64,000 nucleotides of DNA from Methanobacteriota archaeon (GTDB lineage: Archaea > Thermoplasmatota > Poseidoniia > Poseidoniales > Poseidoniaceae): assembly GCA_002718195.1 (NCBI GenBank), contig PBDU01000017.1, positions 53,818 through 117,817 of the forward strand. The letters run 5' to 3'. The notes below the pieces were generated by a model. That model was not told the DNA's origin, did not search any database, and worked only from the letters and a program-made list of their open reading frames with translations. Within the stretch, counting starts at the first letter, position 1; each line of letters begins with the position of its first letter. A program made the position numbers and the translations under genes. Positions 11,540 to 63,762 of this stretch are shown piece by piece.

Positions 11540-12172
11540 TTAAGCCCATTCGCTAGGGTCGAAACTTGCCCCAAAAGACATCGTTTCATCAACCTCAATT
11601 TCATGTGTTTCAACCTCATCTTTTGCAGGGCTTTGTTTTGTTTGAACTTTTCTTGCTTTGTTCTCCCAATCATCTACAGGACCCGGTTTTCCTTTACCCG
11701 GGCCATATGAGAATTTGATTTCATGAATTAATGTTAATTTAGCAAGCCATAATTTTCTTAATGAATGCATTAATTCGTTTTTGCTTAATCCATCAAACCA
11801 AATCGGTAGGCTAACATTGAATGCCTGGAGTGATTCTTTTCCGGGTTTCTTGCCCATGTGAATCCCCCAATCAACTCCGCTTTTGATTAGGTTTAATCTC
11901 ATCTCATGCATCCATTCTTTCCAATCTTCTGTAGATTCTTTGATGTGAGTTTCCATCTCTTCTTGCTGCCCAATATCCACTCTGGTCATTGAACTGATAG
12001 CGACTAAATCTCGTCCTTTGGGAACCACGACTGCAAACATGTGACCTTGTTTTCCTCCGGGGTACTTTACAAGAAAGTGTGCTTCTGCCCTTTGATCAGG
12101 TTGCATCTTATAACTTAGATTCTCTTGTTTGAACCATTTTTTTAGCAAATCCACTGCATCGATGGGTCCCAT
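11540..12172 (-). CDS. hypothetical cytoplasmic protein (possibly DUF2299/YbjN-like)
   Basis: Clean 210-aa ORF, no TM; weak resemblance only. Confidence 0.4.
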   Translation of the reverse strand: MGPIDAVDLLKKWFKQENLSYKMQPDQRAEAHFLVKYPGGKQGHMFAVVVPKGRDLVAISSMTRVDIGQQEEMETHIKESTEDWKEWMHEMRLNLIKSGVDWGIHMGKKPGKESLQAFNVSLPIWFDGLSKNELMHSLRKLWLAKLTLIHEIKFSYGPGKGKPGPVDDWENKARKVQTKQSPAKDEVETHEIEVDETMSFGASFDPSEWA

Positions 12173-25470: not shown

Positions 25471-28400
25471 ATGAGCAAAGACTCGTCTGATAATTCAGAT
25501 GAGTTGATTCGAAAGAAAAATTTTGGTAGAGCAACAGGAATTGACCTATCAGCATTTAATCTAAATCAGGATGTTGTTGAGAATAAAGAACCAGAACCCA
25601 AGCAAGAAATTCAGGAGCCTGAAATGGACCAAGCGGTTGGTGAAGTATACGAATTTTTCACAGAGGGTAAACAGGTTACAGAGGATAATGTTGAACAATT
25701 CGATAGCGTGACGGATTTCGCAGTTCAAGGAGAGAGTAGAGTAAGCGGTGGCTTGCTTGTCATGATGATTCTAACATACTCCATATTCGCAACATTGATC
25801 GGAACTGTGGTTCCTCAATTTATTGCGGCACCTACATTAGTAGCTTTGATCGTTAGTGGATTATACCTTGGCGAGCGTTGGATTCCAAACCCAAACATGA
25901 GGCTACTCGGTGTTACTTGGGTTATCATTTCTATGAAAATATTCTATGGTTTAGCAATCGATGCTCATCATTGGGGTTGGTTAGATGGGTTTGGAGTGGA
26001 TGAGGATATTGTTCTTGGAATTTCATTACTAGCCATAGTTGCTGTAAATGTATTCATCGCCCAAAGGCACAATGAGGACGCAATTGCTGCTCAGGCAACG
26101 CTAGTTCTTCTTGCAGTAGGTAGTGCTGCAGGAGCGATTTATGGGGAAATGGGCGTTGCAGTTATGATTTGTCTAGGAGTGATCTTATTCCATGTGCTTG
26201 CCTTTTTGAGAAATTCAGGTAATCTTGCAAGCCTTGGCATAGCAACATCATATCTATGGGTCGGTTTACATGCAATCTCGCAAAATTGGAAAATTGCAGG
26301 CATTGATTTCGTACCGTTTGAGGATGATTTGCTATTGTTCATCTTAATGTTCTTTGTCACAGGTATAAATGCCACCGTTGCAACTAGATTTTCAAGCGAA
26401 AGAAATTGGTTCTCGGATGGCTTTGAGGCACTAGGTCTTGGTAAACCCGGTCTGTGGTCAGTTTCTGTTGGTCTGGGAATGATTGGGGCATTTTTGGCCT
26501 TAACTGCATTTAGGGACCAAACCGGTTACGCATTGGCGCAATTGAGCTTACTTGGGTCTGCGTTCAGCGCGTCTTATCTTGTTGTGAGAGGAGTTTCCTG
26601 GAATAAGGTGATTGCATTTGTAGGATATCCTGCACCGATCTTACTAGCAATTCTAATTTTGATGACAGGGAGGGATACTGAACTATTTGGAGTTCTTTCC
26701 GGTTATGATGTATATTCTGTACTAACAGTGGTTTTGACCGGCTTTATTTTACTTCAAAATCAGACCAATGTTTCTGATCAAGTCATTTGGGGAGTGGGCG
26801 TTTCAGCCGTGCTTATTTTGACGATTTTAATCCCAGCCGAGGATTATTCCGGGGCAAGAATGTTGCTATACTCCCAGGCAGTTGTTTGGATTGGCATGGG
26901 CGCGTTGGCGCTTTTGAGAAAGTCGGCTGGTATTGCTGGCTTTTCTGTATTAGGGCCTTGGATTTGGTTGCTAATGGTTGCAAGTGGAGCAGAGGATAGA
27001 ATCATCTCAGTGGAAATTCTTCCTACTAATTTCCCAGAATATGATATGACCGCTGTAATTATTCTCATGCTTGTTCAGCAATATACAGTCAACGCCAAAT
27101 TAGGATCTACTAACCTCAATTTAGCAGCCGCAGTACCGGGGTTGAGTGAATTCGGTGCAAGGCTAAGAGATTCTAACTTCATGAATCTCTGGAATATAGG
27201 ATTCATTGTAGCATTGATTTCAATAAGTGCAATAACTCAGCCAGAAAAAGTACCAGCAGTTGGATTAATTGTTGCATTGAATTTGTTAGTAGTAGCGCAT
27301 GCAGCTATGGCTTATTTCCAAATTCATAGGGGAAATCCAAGGACCTTACTGGGTATATGGGGGGCATTTACGATAGTAATTTCATGGGTTTTTGGATACT
27401 CTCCATTCTGGACTCTCGGCTTGTTTATTGCCGTTCTACTGTTACTTCTTGATTCGGATAGATTGTTGCGTACTGATATTGCAAAACTCGATTTGGAAGC
27501 AAAAGAAGCGATGCCAGCAAAATTACTTACCATGTCTATGGGTTTGGTGGCAGGATATCTAATCGTTCTAATTTTAGAGCCGCCCAAACAAATCTATCTT
27601 ACCGGATATGACCTAATTTCTGATCGCGCTCTAGAAGCACAGTATCTAGGGTTTATTTCAGTCGGAATGTTGCTTTTGTATCTCAGAAGAGCAGCGAAAT
27701 TGGAGAAATTATTACCTCCTACCATATCTGCAGTTGGAATGATAATCTGCATTGCTTTGGCTGGGGGAGTATATGATTCACAAGAACTTCAGACGCTTGC
27801 AGCGGTAGTCTTTGTCGGCTCTGGACTTTGGTTGATATCACAAGGAGAAATACGCTCTTCAATGCGGTCTTTGGCAACAATTAACGAAAGATTACAGAGG
27901 CACCAGCTAATGTCCGAAGTTAATTACATGGAGTCAACTGTTGATGTTAGGCAAGATTCAAATCAACCCCCTAAGAGTCAACCAGTTCCAGAAACAGTGT
28001 TGAATGCGTCTCAAATACAAACAGAAGAAGTATTCGCAGCACAGCCCGAGCCACCTGGCGACTTTGAAGTTAGCACACCTTCAATACAAGCATTTGATGT
28101 AAGAAGTATTGAACTACTTGAAAAGCAAAAGAAGCGCGCTAAGCGTAGGTCAGTTGAAAGTGAGTATGACCTAATAGTCGGTGACATAAGTTACAATCCG
28201 ACAATCGTTATCTTATTCTTAGCAGTGTTGCAGTTATTTGGAATACTTGTTGCTTACAGCGGAACTAGTACTACGTTTATTCCCATTCTCGTAGTAGGTA
28301 CAATATCCGTCATGCTAATATTTGTAGCAAAACAAAGGGCTAAGTCATTCAGTCTTCGTTTGCCGGATTTATTAGGTCTCGAAGCTCCAATCGCAGCCTC

Positions 28401-29385
28401 AATGATAGGGCTTTCAGTAATTCTGTTGGCTGGCAGGATTGGATTAAGCCCAGTCTATATTGACGATCAACTAGATAGTATGTTTCTATTAGTGTGTTTA
28501 TCTGGATTAGCAGCTATAAACCTGATCGGTTTTTCAGATAAGAACCTCAGGTTATTGAGCTCATTAGAAGGTGTTGTTGGCTTGTATGCATTTGTGAGAA
28601 TAATCGGTTTATTTGCAGGAGGAGAAATGCCAATTCCATTCCGCATTAATCCCTTTGAAAATCCAATTTCATGGTCTGTTCCAATGCTAACCACTGAGAT
28701 ATTTCTCATAGGTGCTGCTGTTCTGTTTTGGAGTATTGAATCAAAGCATTTTGCTGAAGGGAGAGAAGATGTTAGGGGCGCAGGCGGCAGAATTGGTTGG
28801 TTTGCTCTGATTTTCATTCTCTCTTCTGGAATTGCCTCTTTGATTGCCTTAGTTTGCGTACTGAATACAGGAATAAAATGGAAACAACCAGCAGTTGTTT
28901 TGTCCACCTTTGTTTGTGTGCCCGCTTCGGTTTCACAACTACTATTCTGGCTGGAAGAATATATCCAATTCATAGAACCACTAGATAGATGGCATGTCTC
29001 AATTGCTTTCGGAGCAATATCTATGATGTCTCTTGTATATGTTATCAAAGAAAAGCTATCATTATGGCTTTCAACTTCAATTTGGGCAACTCACCTTCTG
29101 CTTGCATTTGCATCTTTCACTGGATTTGGATACAGTGGAGTTGTGGTGGCAATGTTGGTTTTGTCAGCATGCGCTTGGATACCCGGAGTTCTTACAATGC
29201 GCCGTGGTTGGAGATTGTTTGGAATGGTGGATTTGGTAATTGCATGGACAGTTATGGCTTCCGAATTGATGAATGGAGCCAGTTCAATTCAGGCATTGGT
29301 CATGTTGACAGCGACGATAGTTCTGCTCAGTGTGATTACTTACCTGACCCAATCACGAGAACAAGATATCATGGAATCATCATGA
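25471..29385 (+). CDS. giant polytopic integral membrane protein (1304 aa, roughly 30+ predicted helices), function unknown
   Basis: Continuous ORF with periodic hydrophobic 20-aa segments throughout, acidic N-terminal cytoplasmic region and one approximately 130-aa basic/polar central loop; no catalytic motif recognised. Confidence 0.6.
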   Translation: MSKDSSDNSDELIRKKNFGRATGIDLSAFNLNQDVVENKEPEPKQEIQEPEMDQAVGEVYEFFTEGKQVTEDNVEQFDSVTDFAVQGESRVSGGLLVMMILTYSIFATLIGTVVPQFIAAPTLVALIVSGLYLGERWIPNPNMRLLGVTWVIISMKIFYGLAIDAHHWGWLDGFGVDEDIVLGISLLAIVAVNVFIAQRHNEDAIAAQATLVLLAVGSAAGAIYGEMGVAVMICLGVILFHVLAFLRNSGNLASLGIATSYLWVGLHAISQNWKIAGIDFVPFEDDLLLFILMFFVTGINATVATRFSSERNWFSDGFEALGLGKPGLWSVSVGLGMIGAFLALTAFRDQTGYALAQLSLLGSAFSASYLVVRGVSWNKVIAFVGYPAPILLAILILMTGRDTELFGVLSGYDVYSVLTVVLTGFILLQNQTNVSDQVIWGVGVSAVLILTILIPAEDYSGARMLLYSQAVVWIGMGALALLRKSAGIAGFSVLGPWIWLLMVASGAEDRIISVEILPTNFPEYDMTAVIILMLVQQYTVNAKLGSTNLNLAAAVPGLSEFGARLRDSNFMNLWNIGFIVALISISAITQPEKVPAVGLIVALNLLVVAHAAMAYFQIHRGNPRTLLGIWGAFTIVISWVFGYSPFWTLGLFIAVLLLLLDSDRLLRTDIAKLDLEAKEAMPAKLLTMSMGLVAGYLIVLILEPPKQIYLTGYDLISDRALEAQYLGFISVGMLLLYLRRAAKLEKLLPPTISAVGMIICIALAGGVYDSQELQTLAAVVFVGSGLWLISQGEIRSSMRSLATINERLQRHQLMSEVNYMESTVDVRQDSNQPPKSQPVPETVLNASQIQTEEVFAAQPEPPGDFEVSTPSIQAFDVRSIELLEKQKKRAKRRSVESEYDLIVGDISYNPTIVILFLAVLQLFGILVAYSGTSTTFIPILVVGTISVMLIFVAKQRAKSFSLRLPDLLGLEAPIAASMIGLSVILLAGRIGLSPVYIDDQLDSMFLLVCLSGLAAINLIGFSDKNLRLLSSLEGVVGLYAFVRIIGLFAGGEMPIPFRINPFENPISWSVPMLTTEIFLIGAAVLFWSIESKHFAEGREDVRGAGGRIGWFALIFILSSGIASLIALVCVLNTGIKWKQPAVVLSTFVCVPASVSQLLFWLEEYIQFIEPLDRWHVSIAFGAISMMSLVYVIKEKLSLWLSTSIWATHLLLAFASFTGFGYSGVVVAMLVLSACAWIPGVLTMRRGWRLFGMVDLVIAWTVMASELMNGASSIQALVMLTATIVLLSVITYLTQSREQDIMESS

Positions 29386-36480: not shown

Positions 36481-37212
36481 ATGCTCAAACCAGCACATAC
36501 ATCCTTGCTGGAAGTTCAAAACCGCGTTAGGGAAGATTTTGCCTGGTCTGAAAAAGAAGATTTAGAATCCGCTACTAGTCTAGAGTCAGAATTTAGCAAA
36601 CCCAGCCCGTTCGGCGTCCAGAAATGGAATGATTCAAATTTTTTTACAAACATAATGTTGTTGAAAGATAAATTAATTCAAACCGAAAAAGTGATTCTTG
36701 TTGGGGCAGCGGCTACTGCGCAAGAAGTATCAAACGCGATTAGTCAAGATTGCGTGGTCCTAGCGGCAGACGGTGCCGTAGGCGCTGTTCAAGATTTTAG
36801 CAAACTTGGTGCCATTGTATCAGATTTTGATGGTGAGGAGCACCTAGATTATGCAGCCTCATTAGGGCATCTCATAATCGGTCATGCTCATGGAGACAAT
36901 CTTTCCCTCTGGAGACAGAAGTTACAAACGTGGTCTAAGTTTGAGAAACCACCCGAACTAATACTCACGCATCAAACAAATTCTGAATTTGATTTCATCG
37001 TAAACCCAGGAGGATTCACAGATGGAGATCGTGCTCTTGCATTCGTTTTATCCCTCGGAATTTCAAAACAAAAACTTGAATTTATCGGGTACAGCATGAC
37101 TCCATCTTCGAACTGGTCAAGTATGAAAAATCCATCACGGAAAGCAAAAAAACTCACTTGGATGAAAGAAGTTTTCAGATTATGCGGGCTTGAAAATGAA
37201 ATAGATGTATGA
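36481..37212 (+). CDS. MptE-like 6-hydroxymethyl-7,8-dihydropterin pyrophosphokinase (DUF115) candidate
   Basis: VILVGAAATAQEV...VVLAADGAVGAV...GAIVSDFDGEE matches DUF115/MptE pattern (ADGA ... DxDG). Confidence 0.5.
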   Translation: MLKPAHTSLLEVQNRVREDFAWSEKEDLESATSLESEFSKPSPFGVQKWNDSNFFTNIMLLKDKLIQTEKVILVGAAATAQEVSNAISQDCVVLAADGAVGAVQDFSKLGAIVSDFDGEEHLDYAASLGHLIIGHAHGDNLSLWRQKLQTWSKFEKPPELILTHQTNSEFDFIVNPGGFTDGDRALAFVLSLGISKQKLEFIGYSMTPSSNWSSMKNPSRKAKKLTWMKEVFRLCGLENEIDV

Positions 37213-52062: not shown

Positions 52063-54888
52063 TTAGGAATACACAATTGCTGGAGATAGCGGCATTGCTG
52101 CGCCTGCTTTACCAGTATCGTCTTCTGGGCTTTCAGCCATAATTACCTCAACACGCACCAATCCCAATTCATTGGAAATAAACTCGGTTCTGTCCATGAA
52201 TACTTTGAATTCACTTAATTTACTGAGAATAATCTCTCTAGTATCATCGTCCCATTTGAAAACTTGTGGTAACATTCTCTTAGACCAGAAGCCCATTACC
52301 TGACCTTTATTTTCATCATTTACTAATTCACTATTTGCGAGAAGTCCGATAAATTGTTTCGGATTTCCTCCAGAAATTATGTGCGATAGAGCCATTTTTG
52401 CCAGGTCGCGCTTCCAATCAGGAGAGACAACAATTTTCGCTTGTTGAGCACTACCTTCGAGATGCCTTTCAGCGATTGATTTGACCTTTCTAGCATTTTC
52501 CAAGAATGACTTCAGCAATTCTTCAGAATCTAGTATAGCCTTTTCTTGCTCATTTAAATCCGAAACCTCATCCATCACTTGGCTTGCAAGCAGTCCAGAT
52601 TCTCCGATTTGTTTCCACCAATCTTCTGCCAGGTGAGGTGTAGCCAATGCGATCATAAATGACCAGGATTTCAAAACCTTGGAACCTACTGAGGAATTGT
52701 TTCCTCCTCTTCTAACATACCAATTGATGTCTTTAGGGAGCTCATAATGGGATAATTCTACGGCTCTTCTCAAATCATATTCATCCATTGCGTCTTTCCA
52801 ATCAATCACTCGTTGTTTTAGCCTTGCTAGTAACCAGGAGTCCATCTCGGTTTCTTCATTACCCCATCCGAGAATGTTATCTGGAATTTTCTCCATTTGT
52901 TGCATGACCTTGTAATTTGCTTGCAGCGCTTTATCAGACCAATCCATTCCAGCAGTGGGATTAGCTGCAAATAGGATGAACAGCCTTACCGTATCTGCTC
53001 CAAAATTATCCACCATGTCTTCAGGTGAAACCGTATTCCCAAGACTCTTCGACATCTTTGCACTTCGAAGGCTTAGCGGGGAGTCACAGTGCGGGCAGTT
53101 CTTGTCAATATGTTCTACTGGTAGAGTAACTCCACAAGGTTCACACCAAGGAGCGGCCTTGTTTACCATTCCTTGGCAGAGTAAAGATTGGAATGGCTCA
53201 TCAATGTCGTGTAAGCCCAAGTCTCTTAGTGCCTTGGTCCAAAATCTAGCATATATCAGATGCATTTGTGCATGCTCTATTCCTCCACAGTAGAAATCCA
53301 CATTCATCCAATGATTTGCAACATCTTTGTCAAAACAAATATCATGATTCATTGCGTCCGTATATCTCAAGAAGTACCAGGATGAATCGACAAATGTATC
53401 CATGGTGTCAGTTTCTCTGCGGGCGGGCTTTCCACATTTAGGACAATCAACATTGAGGAAACTTTCCGAAGTTTCCAGTGGATTTCCTTTTCCAGTAAAC
53501 TCAACATCTCTTGGGAGCTCTACGGGCAATTGTTCTTCCGGAACTGCCACAGGTCCACAATCCTTACAGTGGATGATTGGAATCGGTGTGCCCCAATATC
53601 TCTGCCTTGATATTAGCCAAGGTCTTATTTTCCATTGAACAATTTTTTTTCCCATTCCAATTTCATGCAATTTATCACTAATCGCTGACTTGGCATCCTC
53701 GCCATATAGTCCATCAAATCCGGCTACTGGGGAATTAACCATCCAACCAAGTTCTGTTTCTGCCTTTTTCAACTCAGAACTTGGTTCTTGGTCCTCTTTC
53801 GTAACCAAAACACGTTTTACTGGAATGTCATACCTCTTTGCAAATTCAAAGTCTCTTTCATCATGACCCGGAACAGCCATCACTGCACCAGTTCCGTAAG
53901 ATGCGATTACAAAATTACCAATCCAAATCGGTATCTTCTCTTTTGTTAGAGGATGAATTACAAATTTACCAGTTGGTACGCCCTTTTTTGCACCTAGATT
54001 TTTTATCCTGTCGAATTCAGACATTATGCTCGTTTCTTCGAATAAATCCCGCCAAGCAGATTCAAATTCAGTGTCTTTAACTAGCATTTCAGCCAGTGGA
54101 TGCTCTGGTGCTAGAGTGACAAAAGTCACACCAAAAAGAGTATCAGGGCGGGTTGTGAAGACTTCAATATCCTGTTCAAAGTTTTCAATTTCAAACTTAA
54201 TTTCACACCCTTCACTTCTACCTAACCAATCTTGTTGAAGCAATTTCACATTGTTCGGAAAATCAATTTGCTCTAAACCATCAAGCAACTCTTGAGTATA
54301 ATCTGTAATATTGAGGAACCATTGACTCATGTCCTTCTGTTTTACAGGCCCATTGCATCTCCAACATCTCCCTGCTTTTACTTGCTCATTTGCTAATACA
54401 GTTGAACAAGATTCACACCAATTAACAGGAGCGAATTTCTGAACGGCTAAGCCATTTTCAAAAAATTTCGTGAAAAAATATTGATTCCACTTGTAGTATT
54501 TTGGGTCATGGCTCTTGATCATCCTTCTCCAATCATATGAGAATCCCATTCTTTTGATTTGTTGGGTAATTGAGTTCATGTTCTTCTCAGTGATATCATG
54601 TGGATGGCCACCTTCTTTGATAGCAGCATTTTCTGCAGGCATTCCGAATGAATCATATCCCATTGGGTACAAAACTTCGAAGCCCGACATTCTTTTGTAA
54701 CGAGCAACAGCATCACCAATTGAGTAATTCCTTACGTGTCCCATGTGCATTTTGCCGCTTGGGTAGGGGTACATTTCCAAGCAATAGAATGGAGGTTTAT
54801 CTCCTGATATTTCCGTTTCGAAAACTCCTGATTTATTCCACTGTTCCTGCCAGTAGACTTCATCACTTATCGGGCCTTCAGTCGACAT
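52063..54888 (-). CDS. leuS: leucyl-tRNA synthetase (archaeal type)
   Basis: HIGH variant HMGHVRNYSIGD, KMSKS (AKMSKSLGN), FPYPSGKMHMGH, CP1 editing region; 941 aa. Confidence 0.85.
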   Translation of the reverse strand: MSTEGPISDEVYWQEQWNKSGVFETEISGDKPPFYCLEMYPYPSGKMHMGHVRNYSIGDAVARYKRMSGFEVLYPMGYDSFGMPAENAAIKEGGHPHDITEKNMNSITQQIKRMGFSYDWRRMIKSHDPKYYKWNQYFFTKFFENGLAVQKFAPVNWCESCSTVLANEQVKAGRCWRCNGPVKQKDMSQWFLNITDYTQELLDGLEQIDFPNNVKLLQQDWLGRSEGCEIKFEIENFEQDIEVFTTRPDTLFGVTFVTLAPEHPLAEMLVKDTEFESAWRDLFEETSIMSEFDRIKNLGAKKGVPTGKFVIHPLTKEKIPIWIGNFVIASYGTGAVMAVPGHDERDFEFAKRYDIPVKRVLVTKEDQEPSSELKKAETELGWMVNSPVAGFDGLYGEDAKSAISDKLHEIGMGKKIVQWKIRPWLISRQRYWGTPIPIIHCKDCGPVAVPEEQLPVELPRDVEFTGKGNPLETSESFLNVDCPKCGKPARRETDTMDTFVDSSWYFLRYTDAMNHDICFDKDVANHWMNVDFYCGGIEHAQMHLIYARFWTKALRDLGLHDIDEPFQSLLCQGMVNKAAPWCEPCGVTLPVEHIDKNCPHCDSPLSLRSAKMSKSLGNTVSPEDMVDNFGADTVRLFILFAANPTAGMDWSDKALQANYKVMQQMEKIPDNILGWGNEETEMDSWLLARLKQRVIDWKDAMDEYDLRRAVELSHYELPKDINWYVRRGGNNSSVGSKVLKSWSFMIALATPHLAEDWWKQIGESGLLASQVMDEVSDLNEQEKAILDSEELLKSFLENARKVKSIAERHLEGSAQQAKIVVSPDWKRDLAKMALSHIISGGNPKQFIGLLANSELVNDENKGQVMGFWSKRMLPQVFKWDDDTREIILSKLSEFKVFMDRTEFISNELGLVRVEVIMAESPEDDTGKAGAAMPLSPAIVYS

Positions 54889-54950: not shown

Positions 54951-57512
54951 TTAGCGACCAAATTTTTCATCGGTCTCAAGTAAGAAAATTGCTTCCCTTG
55001 TGAGTTTGTAACAGTTCTTCATCCCCATTTTCCTCCTTTCTACTAAGCCATATTTCTGAAGTGTTCTCAAATGGTGTGATATCAATTGCTGGCTTTTATC
55101 TAATCTCTTAGCCAGTGCGGCTTGGGTTGGGAATTCCCCCAATAATCCATCATCATCGAGGATTGTGAGGATTTTTCCTTGCAGAGATTTTGGATCAGGG
55201 CTAAGTGGTGGGACTGGTAACTCCTGCTCCTCAGTATAAGGATTCATGTCGCTTGTAAGAGGATAGTATCTCACCAATCTTCCATCTTTCTTTCTCCAAA
55301 TCTTATCTTCTTTTTCAAGAATTCTGATGTGATGAGTACACTGTCCATTAGACATCTGCATGGCAGCCATTAGTGCTCTAAAGTGACACCCAGGGTTTGC
55401 TGTGAGATAACCCATAATCCTTCCACGCTGGTATTTTCCATCCGTGGTTTCACTGGTTTTTCCAACTAAGCCAACTAACCAGAGTCCCATTGCAGTACTT
55501 GGAATTCTCAAGCTCTCATTGCTTATTATCGCAGTGACGAGTAAGGATAGCAAAGTAGTGCTTGCAATTACAGAAATTACTGGAATTACATTGTTAGCGG
55601 GGACTATTTGTTCTTGAATTTCTACTGTTTGTTCAACGGTTTCTTCTTCAATTAGTTGGATTTCTTCTACGTCGTCATAGATATAGACAATCTCTGTAAC
55701 ATCAAAATTTTGTATTTGGTAGTTCGAACAAGCAAGGGATGTATCAGAAGTCAATGAGCCTGTGAAAATACCAGATTGACCTTGTTGCGGAGCCCAATCG
55801 GTAATTCCCAATGCGCTATTCAAACCAAACTGAGTTTCGTCTTCTTGAGTTAATACCCAGCAAGTACCTTGCTCAGTCAAAAATCCAGTCCAAGTACCTA
55901 TTAGTTCAATCTCATTGATTATCGATTGTTCAGGAGCATCAGCCTCTTCTTCTGTTTGATCCTCAAGTGGCCAATTAAATTCAATAACGTGCTCGTTTAT
56001 TGAACGGGTTGCGAGTTTAATCTCGATTATGTATGTTCCATCCTCTAGGGAGCCACCTTCCGAGTTTAACATGATTATTTCATCTGTTTTGAGTATAAAT
56101 TCTGCTCCATCTGAAAGAGAGAAAGATCTACCATCGTATGTATCACAAACTGTCTGTCTAATCTGTAACCTTTGATTTTCGAGATTCTTCAGGGTAAGTT
56201 CAATCGCACAAGGTCCTTGCCAAGTCAAGTATGAGTTGCTTTGACTACTAAGTATAATGTCCATGTTAAAGCCATTTTCTGTTTCAGATAAATCAGCCTC
56301 GAGAGATAGTAAACTTTCTTCTCCGCATGGTTCTGCAAAGTTACGCTCAAACTCGAATGTTTGAGATTTGGATATTCCCAACTCTGGAATGCTCGCAACT
56401 ATGATGTATTCGCCAGTGCCTACAGAGCATCCATTTACATCAGTGAAGAACCAATTTGGCATCTGGAGATTTAGTACGCCCTGTGTAGGCACAACCCTTT
56501 CTTGTAACATTTCATTGCAGCCGCTTAATTGCTGGCTATCAAAAACAAGATTCCCTATTGCATCATAAATCCAGTAAACTGCACGACAGGAATTAGTAAA
56601 TTCCAGTTCAATATCACTGTCAAGAATATTTTCTAAGAGAATACTTGGTGCAAATGTAGAGTCTGAAGTAAGGATCTGTCCCGATGTTATACCATTTAGG
56701 TTAGAGGTCATTCCGTCAATCACCGGTTTAGGTAATAATGAAAATGTTTCACTCCATTCACCATTTGGTGTGGAGATTATCATCTCGGATCTTGTCTCGA
56801 TGTCGAAACTTAAGTCGATAACGTGATGCAATCTAGTCTCCCATCCCTCTAGTCCAATTTCATCAAAACAACTTGGACCAATTCTTTCCTCTCCGCTAAC
56901 TGAAATTATCAATTTGCAGAATTGGTCATCTGGCATAGATACGGAATTTTCATCGTAATTCGTCCACGTAAGTCTAGCAATTTCAGCATTATGTTCTGAA
57001 AAACCAGCAGAGGAGGACACTACCTCAACCTCCAAATTCAGGCTTTCAGGCCATTCCATTGGAGCAAAGAACTGAACATCAAATGACTTTGACAAATCAG
57101 TTCCGGTGTGTAACGATTCTATTGTGTATATTCCGCTTTCAACCAGTTGTTCGTTGATTTCAAAGTTCCAAAATGTCGAGTATGATTCACTGGTTTCGCC
57201 AGAATCAAGTGTTTGTCCACGAATTTGACCTCTGCAATTTTCTTCACCATTTTGAATGAGATTGCTTTCAGAGTCGTAAATGTTGACCACTATTCCACAT
57301 GTGGGGTCGTCATCAAAGGAAATAGAGTCTCCTGAATTCATCAGCCAAGAATTGAAGTTGATGCTGTCTCCTGAGACATACCACTCTTCAGCCTCGAAAT
57401 CAGTCTCAATTGACAGATTTACTTCCTGTTGAGCAGATATCCCCATCGGATATATTGCAAGAAGTAAAACCACGCACAAAGAGAGAATTTGCATGGTTCT
57501 CACTCTGCCCAT
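54951..57512 (-). CDS. membrane-anchored protein: signal peptide, large extracellular Cys-paired repeat domains, TM helix, two cytoplasmic winged-helix domains
   Basis: MGRVRTMQILSLCVVLLLAIYPMGISA; repeated C-x-[IV]-x-x-IYD-x-x-x-NL-x(6-8)-C units; TM VIPVISVIASTTLLSLLVTAIIS; wHTH-like PGCHFRALMAAMQMSNGQCTHHIRILEKE and QAALAKRLDKSQQLISHHLRTLQKYGLVERRK. Confidence 0.65.
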   Translation of the reverse strand: MGRVRTMQILSLCVVLLLAIYPMGISAQQEVNLSIETDFEAEEWYVSGDSINFNSWLMNSGDSISFDDDPTCGIVVNIYDSESNLIQNGEENCRGQIRGQTLDSGETSESYSTFWNFEINEQLVESGIYTIESLHTGTDLSKSFDVQFFAPMEWPESLNLEVEVVSSSAGFSEHNAEIARLTWTNYDENSVSMPDDQFCKLIISVSGEERIGPSCFDEIGLEGWETRLHHVIDLSFDIETRSEMIISTPNGEWSETFSLLPKPVIDGMTSNLNGITSGQILTSDSTFAPSILLENILDSDIELEFTNSCRAVYWIYDAIGNLVFDSQQLSGCNEMLQERVVPTQGVLNLQMPNWFFTDVNGCSVGTGEYIIVASIPELGISKSQTFEFERNFAEPCGEESLLSLEADLSETENGFNMDIILSSQSNSYLTWQGPCAIELTLKNLENQRLQIRQTVCDTYDGRSFSLSDGAEFILKTDEIIMLNSEGGSLEDGTYIIEIKLATRSINEHVIEFNWPLEDQTEEEADAPEQSIINEIELIGTWTGFLTEQGTCWVLTQEDETQFGLNSALGITDWAPQQGQSGIFTGSLTSDTSLACSNYQIQNFDVTEIVYIYDDVEEIQLIEEETVEQTVEIQEQIVPANNVIPVISVIASTTLLSLLVTAIISNESLRIPSTAMGLWLVGLVGKTSETTDGKYQRGRIMGYLTANPGCHFRALMAAMQMSNGQCTHHIRILEKEDKIWRKKDGRLVRYYPLTSDMNPYTEEQELPVPPLSPDPKSLQGKILTILDDDGLLGEFPTQAALAKRLDKSQQLISHHLRTLQKYGLVERRKMGMKNCYKLTREAIFLLETDEKFGR

Positions 57513-57566
57513 GTGTTAACGCAGGTAACTCATCCCTTGAAAGGGAATTGGTGCATACAGTGTGTA

Positions 57567-58334
57567 ATGGCGAGTACATCACCAGTGGTTTCTGAGTTGA
57601 TTTCAAATGATGAAATCGTAGTGCTGCAAGCCCAGTTAGGAGAGTGGGATAACCTAAATCACCTCTTGGTTTGCGCGAAGAGTAAAAGCGCTGTAATAAT
57701 CGACCCATTTGACGCTAAATTTTGGTTTGATATTTGTCTGGAGAATGGTTGGGAATTAGAACAAGCATGGCTCACACACAGCCATTGGGATCATTCCAAA
57801 GGCATTGAGGAATGTTTGGAATTAGGTGGTCCAAATTTCCAAGTAATATTACACGAAAAAGAGCTTGAGAGGGGCTGGAATGGGCCTCATACTCATTTAT
57901 TGACAAACTCAGAACTTTCAAGTCACCCTCTTGGAATAGGGAAACTGACATTCCAGGCTCATTGCACTCCTGGGCACACTCCTGGGCATCTTACCTTCAC
58001 AGGAAATGGAGTAGTCATCTCTGGTGACTGTTTGTTCTTAGGGCGCTGTGGAAGGGCTGACCTCTATGGTGGAGATGAAAGCAAACTCAGACTAAGTCTT
58101 CGGTATTTGAGGGATGAAATCTCCCATATTCAAGACTGGATGGTTCTTCCTGGGCATCAGTATAAGCTCGAAGACGGCTCAAATCCCACCTCACTAACAG
58201 TCGCTGAATTGTTGATTAACAATCTTGCAATCAAAGCAGTTGATAATGATGAAGATTGGAATAGTCTTGATTTCCTCTCATTTGAGGATTCCTTGGCAGA
58301 AAAGGCAAGAAGACAGCGTGCAATGCAATCCTAA
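57567..58334 (+). CDS. MBL-fold metallo-hydrolase (glyoxalase II-like)
   Basis: THSHWDHSKG (HxHxDH), downstream His/Asp ligands HTPGH, D in SGDCLF; ORF-track start 57489 overlaps upstream gene, MASTSPVV Met chosen. Confidence 0.8.
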   Translation: MASTSPVVSELISNDEIVVLQAQLGEWDNLNHLLVCAKSKSAVIIDPFDAKFWFDICLENGWELEQAWLTHSHWDHSKGIEECLELGGPNFQVILHEKELERGWNGPHTHLLTNSELSSHPLGIGKLTFQAHCTPGHTPGHLTFTGNGVVISGDCLFLGRCGRADLYGGDESKLRLSLRYLRDEISHIQDWMVLPGHQYKLEDGSNPTSLTVAELLINNLAIKAVDNDEDWNSLDFLSFEDSLAEKARRQRAMQS

Positions 58335-61300
58335 TCATAGATTATCTAAGTCTATCATACCAGGCATGGACGCTCTTTCTTCCTCGACTCTCTGCTGTTC
58401 ATATTGTTGCCAAACCGGAACTTGTTCAGGTCCAGTCCAGCCCAATTCTCTAGCTTTTTCCAGGTCTCCCTGACCGACGTAATAGTCAATCCATTCCTGT
58501 CTTCGCAACTCTTCATCTTCCATGGCCATATTGACCATTCTTTCCTCTGCTCTTCTTTTAGCACTCTTTCTGCCGGCAATTTGTTTTGAAATCATAGCCA
58601 CGAATATGAGGGTAAGCATCAGTGCAGCAACTCCACCAAGAACTAACATTCCAGTATCGCTCCCGCCTGAGGTAGAATCTACTTCTCCATCTCCTGTATT
58701 CTGATTCAGAGTCGGGTCTTCAGTGATCAAGCAGGTTACTTGACCTCTGATTCCCGCACTAATTGAGGGGTCCCATTGGCAAGGGTCATTGATATTGGAA
58801 ACACCATCTCCATCATCATCTCTGCAACCGTACCTATCAATAGTTGAGTTGCCCCACTCATTCCTACAATCATCGTTCTGGTATCCAGTGAAGTTATCTC
58901 CGAAACCATCTCCATCCGCGTCTCTGCTTTGAGATGTCCTCAACGGGAAAGCGTCAGGAATTGCACCTTCGGGATTATCTCCAACTCCGTCTCCATCCAT
59001 GTCGGACCATTGCGATACGGTATCGGGGAATGCGTCTCCGTTTTGCTCTCTGATTGTAATTAGATTACCAGGATTTTCTTCATCCTCAATGGTTTTGTTA
59101 ACCCAAGTATAATTGTCACCATATCCATCGCCATCAGAATCTTCCCACTGTGTTCCATCGTTAGGGAATGTATCATCATCATCGGCATAACCGTCTCCAT
59201 CTGCATCTGGACAGCCTTGATAGTTATTCATGGTAGCTTCTCCGTATACGTCTGGACAATCATCACCACCAGGAATGTTTTCATCACCATATCCATCTCC
59301 GTCAGAATCAGCCCACTGGAACGGGTCGTTGGGGAATGCATCTAGCGGATCAGTGACTCCATCAGCATCTGTATCAGGGCAACCTCTTGTTAGAGGATTG
59401 TTGGATGTTCCATAGGATTCAGGGCAAACATCCGGCTCATTTCCGTCCTGATTGTCTCCATATCCGTCACCGTCCGTGTCATCCCACTGAGTAGGGTCTG
59501 CAGGGAATCTGTCTCCATTATTTCCACCAGGGTTGTCACCTCTGCCATCACCATCAGAGTCTTCCCATTGACTTGCATCATCAGGGAACTGATCAGGATT
59601 GTTTCCATCTGGGTTGTCCCCTCTGTTGTCTCCATCTCTATCTTCCCACTGGGTTGAGTCATCAGGGAAAGGGTCTCCAGCATTTGAGTAGCCGTCACCG
59701 TCTCTGTCAGGGCATCCTAATCTATCTTCAGTTGATGTTCCTGAATCACCAGGGCAATCGTCAGCATTATTTCCGGATTGATTGCTTCCAAAACCATCTC
59801 CGTCATCATCGCACCACTGTGTTGGGTCATTAGGGAATGCGTCTGCTCCGTCATTACAAGGGCTGAGAGTAGGCCAACCAGGGGTTGGGTCTGACCAGCC
59901 ATCGCCGTCAGAATCAGGGCAACCAAGTCTATCAAATTGTGAATCTCCCCATGCATTTGGACAACCATCGGGTCTGCTACTGGCTTGCTCATCACCAACC
60001 CAATCTCCGTCAGAATCAGCCCACTGGGTTCTGTCTAGAGGGAATACGTCAACATTAGTTGCGCCAGTAACTAATTCTCCTGGCCACTCCATTGGTCTAA
60101 TGTTAAGCCAAGAGTTGTTAGCAAAGTTGTCTCCATAGCCGTCTCCATCAGTATCGTTCCATTGAGTTGGGTCATTAGGGAATGCATCTCCTCTCTGATT
60201 TATGTGATATTGCTGATTATCCACGTCATACAGATAGTTGTCTCCATAGCCGTCCATGTCCATATCTGCCCATTGTTCGGGGTCAGATGGCCAAAGGTCC
60301 CCCTCGTCTGACCACCCGTCTCCATCTGCATCAGGGCAGCCGAACCTGTCTTCAGTTGAATTACCCCAAGTTAGGATGCAAGCATCTGGTTGGAAAGCGG
60401 GCTCAGGATTGTCACCAAAACCATCGTTATCAGTGTCATTCCACTGGGTTGGCTCATCAGGGAATTGATCTACCTTGCCATCTCCTTGGTCTGTAGTATT
60501 CCAACCATCTTGGTCCGGGTCAATGTTAGCAAACCAAATGTAGAAACCTTCATCATTTCTTCCAAAGGCTTGTGCGATATTCATTCCAGTTGGGGACCAT
60601 GAAACACCATTGTTTTGTCCGCAGTTGTTACCATTACCAGTGCTCGTGCAACCTCCCGGTCTTGGTTGGCTGAAAGAGTCGATAGATTGCCCGGACGCAA
60701 CATCAAAAATCAAAGCCGTTGCGCCATCGCTGTTATACCATCCCATACCGAATATTACTTGAGTGCTGTCTGGGGAAAAATCGGTTCCGTAGCAAGATGT
60801 AGATCCAATCTTAGTCCACGAATTTGTCCAAGTCGAAGTTTCATACATTCTTAGTTTGGAATTTCCAGAATTCTGGTCATATCCCTCACACACAGAAATG
60901 TATTCACCATCATGCGACCATGCTATAGAATTGACAGTACCAGTAGGAGATGATATTGATTGAATTGTTGACCAATCTGTTGTATCAACAACGTAAGCGT
61001 CACCAACTGTACCAATTGCTAGCTCTCCATTTGGTCCGAAGTCAACAGAATGGAATCTGTCTTCGCTTCCTGGATTTAGATTTTGCAATACATTAGCGTT
61101 TGAAGTATCAATTACTCTAACTACTCCGTTAGTACCGCCCCAACCGCTTCTGCCAATTGCAATTGCAGCCATGCTTCCGTCTTCTGATAGGTCGATGTCA
61201 TAAGTGAAATCACCTCCGCCGACATCTGCTGAAATTGACCCATGGATATCGGTTAGGTTGCTTGCATGGTATAATTTTACGGTGTCATCATCGCCAGTCA

Positions 61301-61775
61301 CTCCGATGTATCTTCCATCACCTGACCAAGAAACAGACCCAACATCCCCTCCACTGTAAGCAACAACAGACCTGTCATTTACTCCAGTGCTTGCATTCCA
61401 GACTCTTAGATATCCATTTTCATCTGCAGTCGCAACCCATTCGCCATCTGGCGAATAATCTGCATCATTGAAATCATAATTTTGCGGTATCGAAAATTCC
61501 TTTTGGAAATTTGGATTTGTGCTTGTCCATGAATCAGCCCAGTCGCTAGTCCCATCCCCGTCTCTGTCTGGACAACCTACTTTGTCTATGGTCGAAGTCC
61601 CAGCAGCATAAGGGCAATCATCACTTGCATCATCAGTTCCATCCCCATCAGTGTCAACAGCAGAAACAGTTGGAAGGATAACAGAAGCAACAAGGATTGC
61701 AACTAAAAAAGCAGGCAAAAAATGACCTTTTCTGTCTTCATGCGAAATAGCCATAAAACTCCGAGCATGCATCAT
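58335..61775 (-). CDS. giant surface protein: N-terminal signal/anchor, WD40-like beta-propeller region, long array of thrombospondin type-3-like Ca-binding repeats, C-terminal TM helix plus approximately 80-aa cytoplasmic tail
   Basis: AFLVAILVASVILPTVSAV; propeller-like repeats (SPDGEWVATADENGYLRVW, SWSGDGRYIGVTGDDDTVKLY, AWSHDGEYISVCEG); over 20 D-x-D-G-D-G units; C-term GMLVLGGVAALMLTLIFVAMISKQIAGRKSAKRR. Confidence 0.8.
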   Translation of the reverse strand: MMHARSFMAISHEDRKGHFLPAFLVAILVASVILPTVSAVDTDGDGTDDASDDCPYAAGTSTIDKVGCPDRDGDGTSDWADSWTSTNPNFQKEFSIPQNYDFNDADYSPDGEWVATADENGYLRVWNASTGVNDRSVVAYSGGDVGSVSWSGDGRYIGVTGDDDTVKLYHASNLTDIHGSISADVGGGDFTYDIDLSEDGSMAAIAIGRSGWGGTNGVVRVIDTSNANVLQNLNPGSEDRFHSVDFGPNGELAIGTVGDAYVVDTTDWSTIQSISSPTGTVNSIAWSHDGEYISVCEGYDQNSGNSKLRMYETSTWTNSWTKIGSTSCYGTDFSPDSTQVIFGMGWYNSDGATALIFDVASGQSIDSFSQPRPGGCTSTGNGNNCGQNNGVSWSPTGMNIAQAFGRNDEGFYIWFANIDPDQDGWNTTDQGDGKVDQFPDEPTQWNDTDNDGFGDNPEPAFQPDACILTWGNSTEDRFGCPDADGDGWSDEGDLWPSDPEQWADMDMDGYGDNYLYDVDNQQYHINQRGDAFPNDPTQWNDTDGDGYGDNFANNSWLNIRPMEWPGELVTGATNVDVFPLDRTQWADSDGDWVGDEQASSRPDGCPNAWGDSQFDRLGCPDSDGDGWSDPTPGWPTLSPCNDGADAFPNDPTQWCDDDGDGFGSNQSGNNADDCPGDSGTSTEDRLGCPDRDGDGYSNAGDPFPDDSTQWEDRDGDNRGDNPDGNNPDQFPDDASQWEDSDGDGRGDNPGGNNGDRFPADPTQWDDTDGDGYGDNQDGNEPDVCPESYGTSNNPLTRGCPDTDADGVTDPLDAFPNDPFQWADSDGDGYGDENIPGGDDCPDVYGEATMNNYQGCPDADGDGYADDDDTFPNDGTQWEDSDGDGYGDNYTWVNKTIEDEENPGNLITIREQNGDAFPDTVSQWSDMDGDGVGDNPEGAIPDAFPLRTSQSRDADGDGFGDNFTGYQNDDCRNEWGNSTIDRYGCRDDDGDGVSNINDPCQWDPSISAGIRGQVTCLITEDPTLNQNTGDGEVDSTSGGSDTGMLVLGGVAALMLTLIFVAMISKQIAGRKSAKRRAEERMVNMAMEDEELRRQEWIDYYVGQGDLEKARELGWTGPEQVPVWQQYEQQRVEEERASMPGMIDLDNL

Positions 61776-61878
61776 TAAAAGGAATATCGGTTAAATTGCT
61801 CAACAATAAAGAAACACTGGAGCGGAAAAATGCCCAATTTTCCGAAATGCTTGAACATATAATCTCTGTGAGGTAAGC

Positions 61879-63429
61879 GTGTCTGAGGGCAGTAAGGTCA
61901 ACATCGCGGTCGCAGACCGCGTTTTGCTTCACCTATTTGCTCACTATGAACAACTCGATCAATACATGGTCACATCCGATCTAACCAGGAACGGAATCGC
62001 TCAGGCATGTGCACAGCACCCTCCAAATGTTAGTCGAGCAATGAAAGATCTTCTTCTTGATGGCTTGGTCGAAGAGCATTCGAGAAGCATAATCAACGAG
62101 GATAGGAGGAAAAAAGCCTGGCAACTAACTCCAGCAGGGCATTCCACTGCAAAAAGACGCTACAATGACCTTGCAAAAGTGAAGGTCCTCCTTAGAGGTA
62201 AAGATGGTAAATTACTGGAAATAGAAGCGGGCGAAGCTGCTGACCGTTTATCTACTGATATCGGCTTACTTCAGATTCTACTTCATTCGCAGTATGAGGG
62301 TGCACTTACCTATGGCGACATCAGATTTGGATTAATTAAGAAAAAGAATGAGGGTAAAGATACGCCACAGCCAGGAAGATTGGTACCTTTCCTCGGAGCT
62401 CATGCTACCTACCACACAGAGGCTCCTCAGACGAGAGAAGTTCATGGCAGAGAATCTGAAAGGGAACTAATAGACTCTTGGATGGAGGAAAAAAGTCCTT
62501 GTCTGGTGGTTCATGGAATCGCAGGAATTGGAAAATCAACACTCGTTTCCCACTGGCTTTCAAAACATAAAATGGAGAATAAAAATCTCTCTGTGTGTTG
62601 GTATCCATGCCATCCATGGGACAAGGAATTGGGGCTTGCAACAAGCCTTCTTCACAGATTTGGCGTGGATGAAAACCATGATCCATACAATTTAATCGAG
62701 ACTTTACCCCTCAAACCCGGAGCAAAGATGGATGTTGAATTATGGTATAGGCGCTTGCTTGCATATCTAACCGATGCTAACGCAATCAGGGAGCGTTTCA
62801 GTCGACGAAAAGGCGGGCCTCCACCATATTGGCTGATTATTTTAGACGACGTACATCTGATCGAGAATGAGTGTAAAGAGTTGTTAACTGCTCTTTTGAC
62901 TTTGAGCACAAAAACCCCGCTAAGGCTTGTAATGATCTCCAGAGCAACTCTTTCCTTCTATGATAGGCGTGACGTTTTTACAAGAAAAATCGTGCAAGAA
63001 ATGCCTCTAAAAGGCCTGACATTGGATGAAGTCAAAATTTGGATTGAAGACTTTGATCCGGAATCAAACCTTGACATCGATGAATTATTTGCACAAATTG
63101 GAGGTCATCCATTGGCACTTGAGTTTTTGGAACTATACGGTACAAAAATTCACGGGGATTGGTTGAAGTTCTTAGATCAAGAGATTCTAGAAAGGCTACC
63201 GGAAATGGAGAGGAACTTACTCTCTACGCTTGCTGTTAGCGAGAAACCTGTGGTTTGGGAGAAACTTGCAAAAGCGGTTGGCTGGAATGGAAACCCCCCT
63301 GAAAATCTTCTATCTCATGGGCTGATTATAGAGCTAGAAGATGGCATGTGGTTGCATGAGGCACTCAGAGAACGCCTCCTACGGGAAGTCGGAGCAAAGA
63401 AGGAAGAAAGACGAGAATCTCTGATTTAA
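61879..63429 (+). CDS. winged-HTH plus P-loop NTPase (AAA/STAND-like) putative regulator
   Basis: N-terminal MarR-like wHTH (TRNGIAQACAQHPPNVSRAMKDLLLDGLVEE), Walker A CLVVHGIAGIGKSTLVSHWL, Walker B-like WLIILDDVHLIE; GTG start. Confidence 0.6.
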   Translation: MSEGSKVNIAVADRVLLHLFAHYEQLDQYMVTSDLTRNGIAQACAQHPPNVSRAMKDLLLDGLVEEHSRSIINEDRRKKAWQLTPAGHSTAKRRYNDLAKVKVLLRGKDGKLLEIEAGEAADRLSTDIGLLQILLHSQYEGALTYGDIRFGLIKKKNEGKDTPQPGRLVPFLGAHATYHTEAPQTREVHGRESERELIDSWMEEKSPCLVVHGIAGIGKSTLVSHWLSKHKMENKNLSVCWYPCHPWDKELGLATSLLHRFGVDENHDPYNLIETLPLKPGAKMDVELWYRRLLAYLTDANAIRERFSRRKGGPPPYWLIILDDVHLIENECKELLTALLTLSTKTPLRLVMISRATLSFYDRRDVFTRKIVQEMPLKGLTLDEVKIWIEDFDPESNLDIDELFAQIGGHPLALEFLELYGTKIHGDWLKFLDQEILERLPEMERNLLSTLAVSEKPVVWEKLAKAVGWNGNPPENLLSHGLIIELEDGMWLHEALRERLLREVGAKKEERRESLI

Positions 63430-63762
63430 TCAGAAGTCATCAGCAGTAACATGCTGGTCAATCCAATTTGAAAGCTGTGCCTTTGGTTGGGCACCGGATA
63501 GGTTGCCAACGACTTTTCCATTTTTGAACATGTAAAGGGCAGGGATGCCTCTTACGCCTAGTTTTGCGGCATTCATTGAGTCAGTGTCAGTGTTCACTTT
63601 TACGATTTGAACATCATCTCTTTCACCAGAAATTTGGTCAAGGACCGGTGCAATCATCTTGCATGGGCCACACCATGGTGCCCAGAAGTCAACCAAGACA
63701 AATTCGTGATTTGCTAAAGTTGAGTCAAACTCTGCATCTGTTATGTTGAGTATTTCTGCCAT
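63430..63762 (-). CDS. trxA: thioredoxin
   Basis: WAPWCGPCKMIAP active site, 110 aa. Confidence 0.93.
   Translation of the reverse strand: MAEILNITDAEFDSTLANHEFVLVDFWAPWCGPCKMIAPVLDQISGERDDVQIVKVNTDTDSMNAAKLGVRGIPALYMFKNGKVVGNLSGAQPKAQLSNWIDQHVTADDF

Follow-up and report, generated by a model that had tools for sequence, protein, structure and literature searches.

A 64,000-nt stretch of DNA from a Ca. Poseidoniales (Marine Group II) genome was analyzed, and this whole stretch is referred to here as the window. Between the core genes leuS and trxA it carries four open reading frames (ORFs) with strands -, +, -, +, which encode a protein with a membrane helix and a pair of winged helix-turn-helix (wHTH) domains (P1), a metallo-beta-lactamase-fold (MBL) hydrolase (P2, called MBL below), a large surface protein (P3) and a wHTH protein with a nucleoside triphosphatase (NTPase) core of the STAND class (signal transduction ATPases with numerous domains; P4). 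The data suggest that this block is probably a vertically inherited stretch of the Poseidoniales core chromosome and not an island, and that it consists of four separate transcription units, with P1 and P4 as the regulators. The four genes are regarded as separate units because promoter-like boxes lie 24-28 nt upstream of each start codon and only P1 and MBL share one. An earlier reading of this DNA (the sequence-only reading) had described four genes packed between leuS and trxA, and the ORF list confirmed both their positions and their alternating strands; its further description of them as a self-contained accessory island did not hold. The genes of the block and its two flanks are as follows.

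52063..54888, minus strand: leuS, flanking core gene with tRNA-synthetase domains
54951..57512, minus strand: P1, 853 aa, predicted type-I transmembrane transcription regulator
57567..58334, plus strand: P2 (MBL), 255 aa, MBL-fold hydrolase
58335..61775, minus strand: P3, 1146 aa counted from the first ATG, type-I surface protein
61879..63429, plus strand: P4, 516 aa, cytoplasmic wHTH-STAND NTPase with a GTG start
63430..63762, minus strand: trxA, flanking core gene (Thioredoxin, E 7.1e-32), convergent with P4 with zero gap

Conservation and composition of the block

Synteny was assessed by scanning one genome per species with the MBL protein, which gave 49 loci, most of them from records titled Poseidoniales or Poseidoniaceae and the closest 89% identical. 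The sequence-only reading had proposed co-occurrence and gene order in related genomes as a check, and the outcome was positive in nearly all of the 49 species-level loci, where the order leuS-P1-MBL-P3-P4-trxA was kept, as well as in deeper relatives. P1 and MBL were adjacent in 42 of the 47 assessable loci, MBL and P3 in 40 of 44, P3 and P4 in 33 of 37, and P4 and trxA in 32 of 35, and most failures of adjacency were partial alignments. Nine further loci were reached via distant relatives of P1; these had GC contents of 38-68% and leuS proteins that were 49-61% identical where fully aligned, and they showed the same arrangement. The full backbone rpe-trxA-P4-P3-MBL-P1-leuS-TPD-GHMP-rpoD-S11-S4-S13 was present in L060 and in L061 / L062. 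All loci that could be placed in published tables of metagenome-assembled genomes (MAGs) were Marine Group IIa (MGIIa), and conservation in MGIIb is suggested by the deeper relatives and one Thalassarchaeaceae record (L015).

One caveat of this comparison is that the flanking housekeeping pairs used as controls were equally syntenic (trxA and rpe adjacent in 31 of 32 assessable loci, rpe and a GT4 glycosyltransferase gene in 32 of 33), and therefore the co-occurrence test cannot separate a module from general synteny. The four genes could then be functionally unrelated neighbors held together by inertia in a slowly rearranging genome, with the divergent pairs sharing nothing more than space-saving promoters. 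Conservation extends over the whole backbone of about 20 kb between rpe and the genes for ribosomal proteins, and other long syntenic clusters have been reported in Poseidoniales (PMC10877094), both of which speak for such inertia. However, the divergent MBL-P1 pair was found in every deeper relative examined and is the most persistent association in the data, and this explanation was considered distinctly unlikely.

Several loci departed from the common arrangement. In L045, which belongs to a low-GC lineage, the order was leuS-MBL-P4-trxA-rpe (L045:3666-9182), and P1, P3 and a neighboring thrombospondin type 3 (TSP3) protein were all absent. L045 corresponds to MAG SP3059, which forms a separate MGIIa clade (tree in the supplement of Tully 2019). 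Three metagenome contigs (L052, L053 and L054) shared the L045 arrangement, one of them representing a second species with 77% P4 identity, and only in this lineage are MBL and P4 co-directional, 2 nt apart. In L016 and L020 leuS-P1-MBL was kept, a 1724-aa PA14 / LamG protein stood in place of P3, and P4 and trxA were not nearby, which suggests that the position next to MBL is a replaceable "surface protein slot". The protein in L016 (L016:11684-16858, minus strand) is a PA14 / Laminin_G_3 surface protein with a cytoplasmic tail unrelated to that of P3. Seven genes were inserted between P3 and MBL in L055, and a PAS-HisKA kinase was found at the same position in L057. Given the exceptions in L045, L016, L020, L055 and L057, the four genes are not obligately linked.

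These loci bear on the possibility of an integrated surface-sensing module, in which P1 would sense contact with a surface or particle, P4 would integrate a cytoplasmic signal, and P3 and MBL would form one regulon. The genes have stayed together at deep divergence despite the insertions in L055 and L057, and P1, P3 and the TSP3 protein are jointly absent from one lineage (L045, L052-L054), as might be expected of a module. However, that joint absence may be streamlining or the ancestral state, P4 persists in the same lineage without P1 and P3, P1 and MBL persist in L016 and L020 without P3 and P4 at the locus, and synteny carries no specific signal when the flanking housekeeping genes are equally syntenic. 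Such a module was considered unlikely.

The island claim is refuted, and acquisition of the block as an accessory or horizontally transferred genomic island retains next to no credibility. What spoke for it was the "non-housekeeping" nature of the genes, which include large surface proteins, a type that is often variable, and the fact that a different giant surface protein takes the place of P3 in L016 and L020. Against this, the composition of the block is native: GC content at third codon positions (GC3) was 0.351-0.400 for the four genes compared with 0.362 +/- 0.035 for the window, and codon-usage divergence was 0.03-0.08 compared with 0.085 +/- 0.041. The comparison of GC and codon usage that had been proposed together with the island claim thus revealed no atypical composition. 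No tRNA was found in the window and no extra free-standing ORF in the block, where each ORF of at least 80 aa either belongs to the four genes or overlaps with them, and flanking repeats were not searched for. Scans of the region with Rfam (E <= 0.1), for tRNAs and with PADLOC returned nothing relevant, defense systems included; the PADLOC matches of P1 were generic HTH matches to Csa3 / CasR. The surrounding region is a core region that carries genes for DNA polymerase D, rpoD and ribosomal proteins (S11 / S4). Instead of a patchy distribution, the block was found at an unchanged position in almost all of the 49 loci and in the deeper relatives, down to 49% leuS identity, which points to vertical inheritance across a wide GC range.

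Gene layout and intergenic elements

An independent gene call, made on a 99%-identical contig of 2.06 Mb, gave lengths of 255 aa for MBL, 1139 aa for P3 and 516 aa for P4. This call places the MBL start at ATG 57567, and orthologue alignments begin at the same place. The start of MBL had been described as overlapping P1; because the independent call gives an MBL of 255 aa, that overlap is an artefact of taking the longest ORF (TTG at 57489). P1 and MBL diverge from each other across a 54-nt spacer, and a conserved promoter-like element fills the region of the alleged overlap. P3 probably starts at Met8 (61754), which gives 1139 aa. The close, co-directional genes of an operon were not found among the four genes in the window since their strands alternate, and this also speaks against an integrated module.

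leuS lies downstream of P1 in the same direction, with a gap of 62 nt in the window. In about half of the loci this gap is about 1 kb, and in L002 an ORF of 291 aa lies within it on the opposite strand (L002:6450-7325, plus strand), so that co-transcription of P1 and leuS is ruled out in L002. On the far side of leuS (49399-52062, plus strand) lies the gene for the neighboring TSP3 protein (TSP3_887), which is 887 aa long, matches Pfam TSP_3 (E 4.4e-28) and has a signal peptide and a C-terminal membrane helix. As this protein stands just outside the block, the leuS boundary of the supposed island is arbitrary.

Across loci the P1-MBL spacer is 28-105 nt long (mostly 40-61) and the P3-P4 spacer 60-183 nt (mostly about 63-116). 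Three conserved elements were located in these spacers in the window.

57530..57556, unstranded: element A, TCATCnCTT(G/A)(A/G)AAG-N6-YGGTnCAT, also written TCATCnCTTGAAAG-N6-YGGTnCAT
61776..61802, unstranded: element B, beside the P3 start, (A/T)AAAAGG-N6-GGT-N5-TG(T/C)(G/T)CA
61850..61857, plus strand: CTTGAACA box, centered 25.5 nt upstream of the GTG start of P4

Element A was kept in 47 of the 47 loci examined as well as in the window. The start codons of P1 and MBL are each 27.5 nt away from its palindromic core CTTGAAAG (57536-57543), and a position weight matrix (PWM) built for element A scored 24.6 bits at its own site, compared with 12.8 for the second-best site across the 64 kb and a shuffle maximum of 21.0. 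From this symmetry, element A may be a bidirectional TATA-like box common to two leaderless transcripts, those of P1 and MBL. This arrangement argues against pure inertia, because some co-regulation is likely where two starts lie 28-105 nt apart around a palindromic box that is symmetric to both. Measured from the Met8 start of P3, the A/T-rich part of element B has its center about 24 nt upstream. Its PWM scored 25.0 bits at its own site, with 11.5 for the next best site and a shuffle maximum of 16.3. Among the deep relatives, L059 shows the pattern AAAAGG-N6-GGT-N5-TGCA and L061 the similar TTGCGGT-N5-TGCA.

Upstream of P4, a conserved G(A/G)AAnnGTTGA(A/G) block was found about 30 nt from the starts across loci, with AAGTTCAAC in L059 and L061. 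In the window the P4 box is non-coding because there is an in-frame TGA inside it, and the CTTGAACA box is probably P4's own core promoter. Several P4 versions in the databases (P0003, P0007, P0011, P0018 and others) carry N-terminal extensions of 10-50 aa that run across this promoter-like block (window positions 61776-61878), which in the window holds an in-frame stop, and these extensions are probably mis-called starts.

Strongly conserved intergenic elements in two divergent pairs, each with a regulator and a possible target, are what a surface-sensing module would call for. However, no common operator emerged: the PWMs of A and B each matched only their own site in the 64 kb, detecting neither each other's site nor a third one, and the relaxed pattern AARGG-N6-GGT was not enriched (2 matches compared with 3.4 expected). 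A common motif linking both divergent pairs was dropped as a candidate on these grounds. The boxes of the four genes look like ordinary core promoters. A TT[GC]AA box centered 22-32 nt upstream of the start was present at 6 of the 41 genes in the window, with 2.3 expected, and TT[GC]AA may serve this archaeon as a local variant of the TATA box at leaderless transcripts. Such sites were seen at 57536-57543 and 61850-61857 and upstream of the genes at 11540..12172, 25471..29385 and 36481..37212.

Control regions outside the block were conserved to a similar degree in the orthologues, namely the spacer between trxA and rpe and the leader of leuS, which has an ATTCAAG promoter-like box and a GC-rich hairpin, and this is a point in favor of general synteny as the sole explanation. 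The hairpin corresponds to a GC-rich palindrome, GCCCC-N3-GGGGC, found in the leuS leaders of L007 (7373-7385), L008 (7386-7398), L013 (7357-7369), L025 (7363-7375) and L037 (7361-7373). The same palindrome occurs in P1-MBL spacers near the P1 or MBL start in L016 (9954-9966), L020 (6565-6577) and L039 (9963-9975), and it shows compensatory changes between species. A search of the window for the GCCCC-N3-GGGGC leader hairpin found none.

The four proteins and their relatives

P1 had been described as a membrane-tethered protein with tandem wHTH domains, and this was borne out by its domain matches and its hydropathy profile, from which alone its topology was derived. Two hydrophobic segments were found, an N-terminal signal-like segment (aa 9-27) and a helix directly before the HTH pair. 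The signal peptide (aa 1-27) is followed by an outer domain (aa 28-640) that is cysteine-rich, beta-rich and fast-evolving, and for which no Pfam family scored above cutoff. The cytoplasmic end of the protein is encoded as follows.

55524..55580, minus strand: P1 membrane helix, aa 645-663, mean Kyte-Doolittle hydropathy 2.36 in a 19-residue window
54987..55430, minus strand: P1 cytoplasmic wHTH pair, HVO_0163-type (aa 695-755) and ArsR/MarR-type (aa 795-842)

The first wHTH domain of P1 matches PF24266 HTH_HVO_0163_N (E 6.4e-15; 55.4 bits against a cutoff of 31), and P1 also reaches the Pfam cutoffs for HTH_24, HTH_5, HTH_20 and MarR_2. Its score against NF033788 (ArsR) was 53.4 bits, just under the cutoff of 55, and the ArsR-family structure 2oqg in the PDB was a weak match (E 4.7e-4). 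In an alignment of 15 orthologues the outer domain was 24-39% identical with invariant Cys columns, and the cytoplasmic part was nearly invariant, including the wHTH motifs GYLTANPGCHFRAL and SQQLxSHHLRTL. With a view to the metal-binding site of ArsR/SmtB metalloregulators, invariant Cys/His residues were noted in PGCHF, THH and SHH.

The wHTH-pair family comprises 234 clusters at 50% identity (E <= 1e-10), and the pair usually lies at the extreme C-terminus of proteins of 280-1460 aa. A hydrophobic segment directly preceded it in 37 of 47 sampled distant relatives, and most of these 37 also have an N-terminal signal-like segment. A profile search with the 15-orthologue alignment returned the same 19 close proteins and did not widen the reach. 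The type-I transmembrane transcription regulators (TTRs) to which P1 therefore appears to belong form a large subfamily, and no experimental study of any member was found in the literature searched. L055, a 3.0-Mb contig with a GC content of 68%, encodes two P1-like proteins (P0160 and P0182, 60% and 42% identical to the wHTH pair of the window), and the family is therefore duplicated in some lineages.

TTRs are reported to be widespread in archaea, 56% of those catalogued being single-pass (Demey et al. 2023, PMC10269533), and examples include bacterial ToxR, CadC and TcpP and Sulfolobus ArnR / ArnR1 (PMC10269533). Like these, P1 combines a recognized DNA-binding domain, a membrane span and an outer domain in one single-pass polypeptide. 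On these predicted features P1 is a type-I, single-pass TTR, with regulation while membrane-anchored being putative. It differs from ToxR and CadC in using a wHTH pair (HVO_0163-type and ArsR/MarR-type) and not an OmpR-type wHTH, and the domain order of ToxR and CadC is opposite to that of P1, in which the signal peptide and outer domain are N-terminal and the DNA-binding part is C-terminal. The first wHTH of P1 matches a family named from HVO_0163 of Haloferax volcanii, reported to be an ArsR-type transcription protein that rises after hypochlorite stress (PMC10294847), and the likeness to HVO_0163 is one of sequence only. The PF24266 domain is N-terminal there according to the model description; in P1 an outer domain of 640 aa and the membrane helix precede it.

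P4 had been called a wHTH-P-loop NTPase, and it does match Pfam AAA_16 (E 1.2e-10) and has an N-terminal wHTH. The wHTH (aa about 11-83) is followed by a small alpha/beta domain (about 85-145), a disordered linker and a nucleotide-binding oligomerisation core (about 186-516). The AlphaFold2 (AF2) model had a pLDDT of 78 and a pTM of 0.69, and its top Foldseek matches were MalT (8bob), CED-4, PH0952 (6mfv), Apaf-1 and Avs (probability 1.0); the PDB sequence search with P4 also found 6mfv. Walker A (GIAGIGKST), Walker B (LIILDDVH) and GGHPLAL were invariant in an alignment of 33 orthologues and are followed by a C-terminal winged helix. P4 thus has the nucleotide-binding oligomerisation (NOD) module that defines STAND proteins, consisting of the Walker A/B core, a helical domain and a winged helix.

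This NOD core (Walker A/B, GxP GGHPLAL, winged helix) is shared with MalT and the other large ATP-binding regulators of the LuxR family (LAL), with AfsR and the Streptomyces antibiotic regulatory proteins (SARP), and with archaeal PH0952 (6mfv), and as in the STAND transcription factors it is fused to a DNA-binding domain. However, MalT, AfsR and PH0952 carry TPR-type sensors and P4 has none. Pfam found no repeat family (TPR, WD40 or LRR) at its C-terminus, and the protein stops at aa 516, directly behind the winged helix, so that sensor repeats are absent. The HTH of P4 is N-terminal and MarR/Crp-like, in contrast to the C-terminal LuxR-type HTH of MalT and the LAL group and the OmpR-type HTH of SARP. 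P4 also differs from the variable defense-type STANDs in being highly conserved, in occurring once at the locus in every examined lineage that has it (53-65% identity, about as leuS), and in having no PADLOC defense-system match.

The P3 protein had been read as a 1146-aa surface protein with a beta-propeller, TSP3 repeats and a cytoplasmic tail. The propeller and the tail were confirmed, the length is doubtful given the probable Met8 start, and the repeats were recognized by motif, there being no match to Pfam TSP_3 even at E <= 1. The WD40-type propeller (aa about 97-370) scored 43.2 bits against PF00400 (cutoff 27), and several propeller families cover the segment. The acidic calcium-type repeats (aa about 419-1000) include 20 D-x-D-x-D-[GN] motifs, of which 15 fit D.D.DG..D. 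By hydropathy there is an N-terminal signal-like segment, one membrane helix (aa 1044-1062) and an 84-aa tail in the cytoplasm.

58338..58589, minus strand: P3 cytoplasmic tail, aligned in 40+ orthologues

The tail is better conserved than the outer domains and contains the near-invariant motif W[IV][DE][HY]YV..G....A..LGW ... VPQW.Q ... P.M.DLD.L with an acidic end. This motif was found in all orthologues, once per locus and only in P3, including the deep relatives L055 and L057, and it revealed that P3 is present in L005, L011 and L040. Searches of the PDB and Pfam returned no relative of the tail. "Thrombospondin" genes are reported to be widespread in Poseidoniales and have been linked to adhesion (Rinke et al. 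2018, PMC6461757). P3 resembles these thrombospondin-type-3 proteins in its large size, its place at the cell surface and its many acidic calcium-type repeats, but its repeats fail Pfam TSP_3 and it adds a propeller and a conserved cytoplasmic tail. P3 is predicted to be a calcium-dependent, adhesin-like surface protein.

The assignment of P2 as an MBL-fold hydrolase was upheld by a match to Pfam Lactamase_B (E 5.4e-12) and by the HxHxDH metal motif, which reads THSHWDH in the translation. The best PDB match was GloB (6rz0, E 4.8e-15), and GloB was also best in NCBIfam. Like GloB, the protein has an MBL fold, the HxHxDH motif and a similar length and is predicted to be cytoplasmic, but it is extended by about 60 aa at the C-terminus and lies far under the equivalog cutoffs (75.3 bits against 200.8 for TIGR03413 GloB; 59 bits against 421 for NF007597). 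No signal peptide or hydrophobic membrane segment was seen in the hydropathy profile, and the protein is a predicted cytoplasmic glyoxalase-II-like MBL hydrolase. The statement that two regulators flank two exposed proteins was thus half wrong: P1 and P4 do stand on either side, but MBL is cytoplasmic and P1 is itself exposed, so that the exposed pair is P1 and P3.

Proposed regulation and its alternatives

To our knowledge, almost nothing is known about gene regulation and particle sensing in Poseidoniales. If the block is a core stretch of four separate units, the following mechanism can be proposed. The disulfide-rich, fast-evolving outer domain of P1 would bind an external cue, and its near-invariant wHTH pair would contact DNA while P1 stays anchored in the membrane. 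The P1 promoter, common to P1 and the divergent MBL gene, would be the likeliest target. MBL would hydrolyze thioesters or small molecules in the cytoplasm, and P3 would serve at the surface as a calcium-dependent adhesin-like protein. P4 would be an ATP-driven STAND switch with its output through the N-terminal wHTH, and would most likely act on the promoter of P4 itself or on the one of the divergent P3 gene. The two divergent pairs may or may not be coupled, and the most likely picture is of two independent regulators beside neighbors that they may or may not control.

A number of points weigh against this interpretation. The DNA targets named for P1 and P4 are conjectural. For the outer domain of P1 no fold is available, as the AF2 model built from 8 close sequences had a pLDDT of 34 and was unusable. 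The flanks of the element A palindrome co-vary between clades (CCCTT..AAGGG, ATCCCTT..AAGGGAT, ACTT..AAGT), and a dedicated site for a dimeric regulator would also yield co-varying flanks, so elements A and B may hold operators besides core promoters. Finally, the breakpoints of an inversion in L039 lie exactly at the borders of leuS..P4, and the block moved as one unit. This hints at selection for keeping the block together, and an inversion that left leuS..P4 intact also agrees with an integrated module.

It was also considered that P3 and P4 form a split receptor, in which the P3 tail would be the sensor input for the sensor-less P4 and P1 a second, parallel input, the whole being an ancient Poseidoniales adhesion-sensing circuit. 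Extracellular binding, whether to a surface or calcium-dependent, would on this reading be passed on to an ATP-driven transcription switch within the cell. The lack of a sensor domain in P4, the better conservation of the P3 tail relative to the outer domain, and the absence from P4 of the otherwise invariant surface loop IRERF..GGPPPY in the L045 lineage, which has no P3, are consistent with this idea but do not show it, and it was regarded as a long shot.

Recognizing the four-unit block as core and not accessory removes a false lead. It also leaves three conserved, uncharacterized players for direct study, namely the wHTH-pair membrane family, the sensor-less wHTH-STAND protein and the propeller protein with a conserved tail. 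The TTR class has already been described; the P1 subfamily, the P3 tail and the sensor-less P4 are the uncharacterized parts. The compact, conserved promoter regions of the block provide concrete DNA targets for binding assays.

Two of the database records used here carry unexpected titles. L016 (CAXRJJ010000044.1) is titled "Yoonia sp." and L039 (JAOMAZ010000005.1) "Deltaproteobacteria bacterium", and both carry the Poseidoniales leuS-P1-MBL block. These contigs are probably mis-binned or contaminating.

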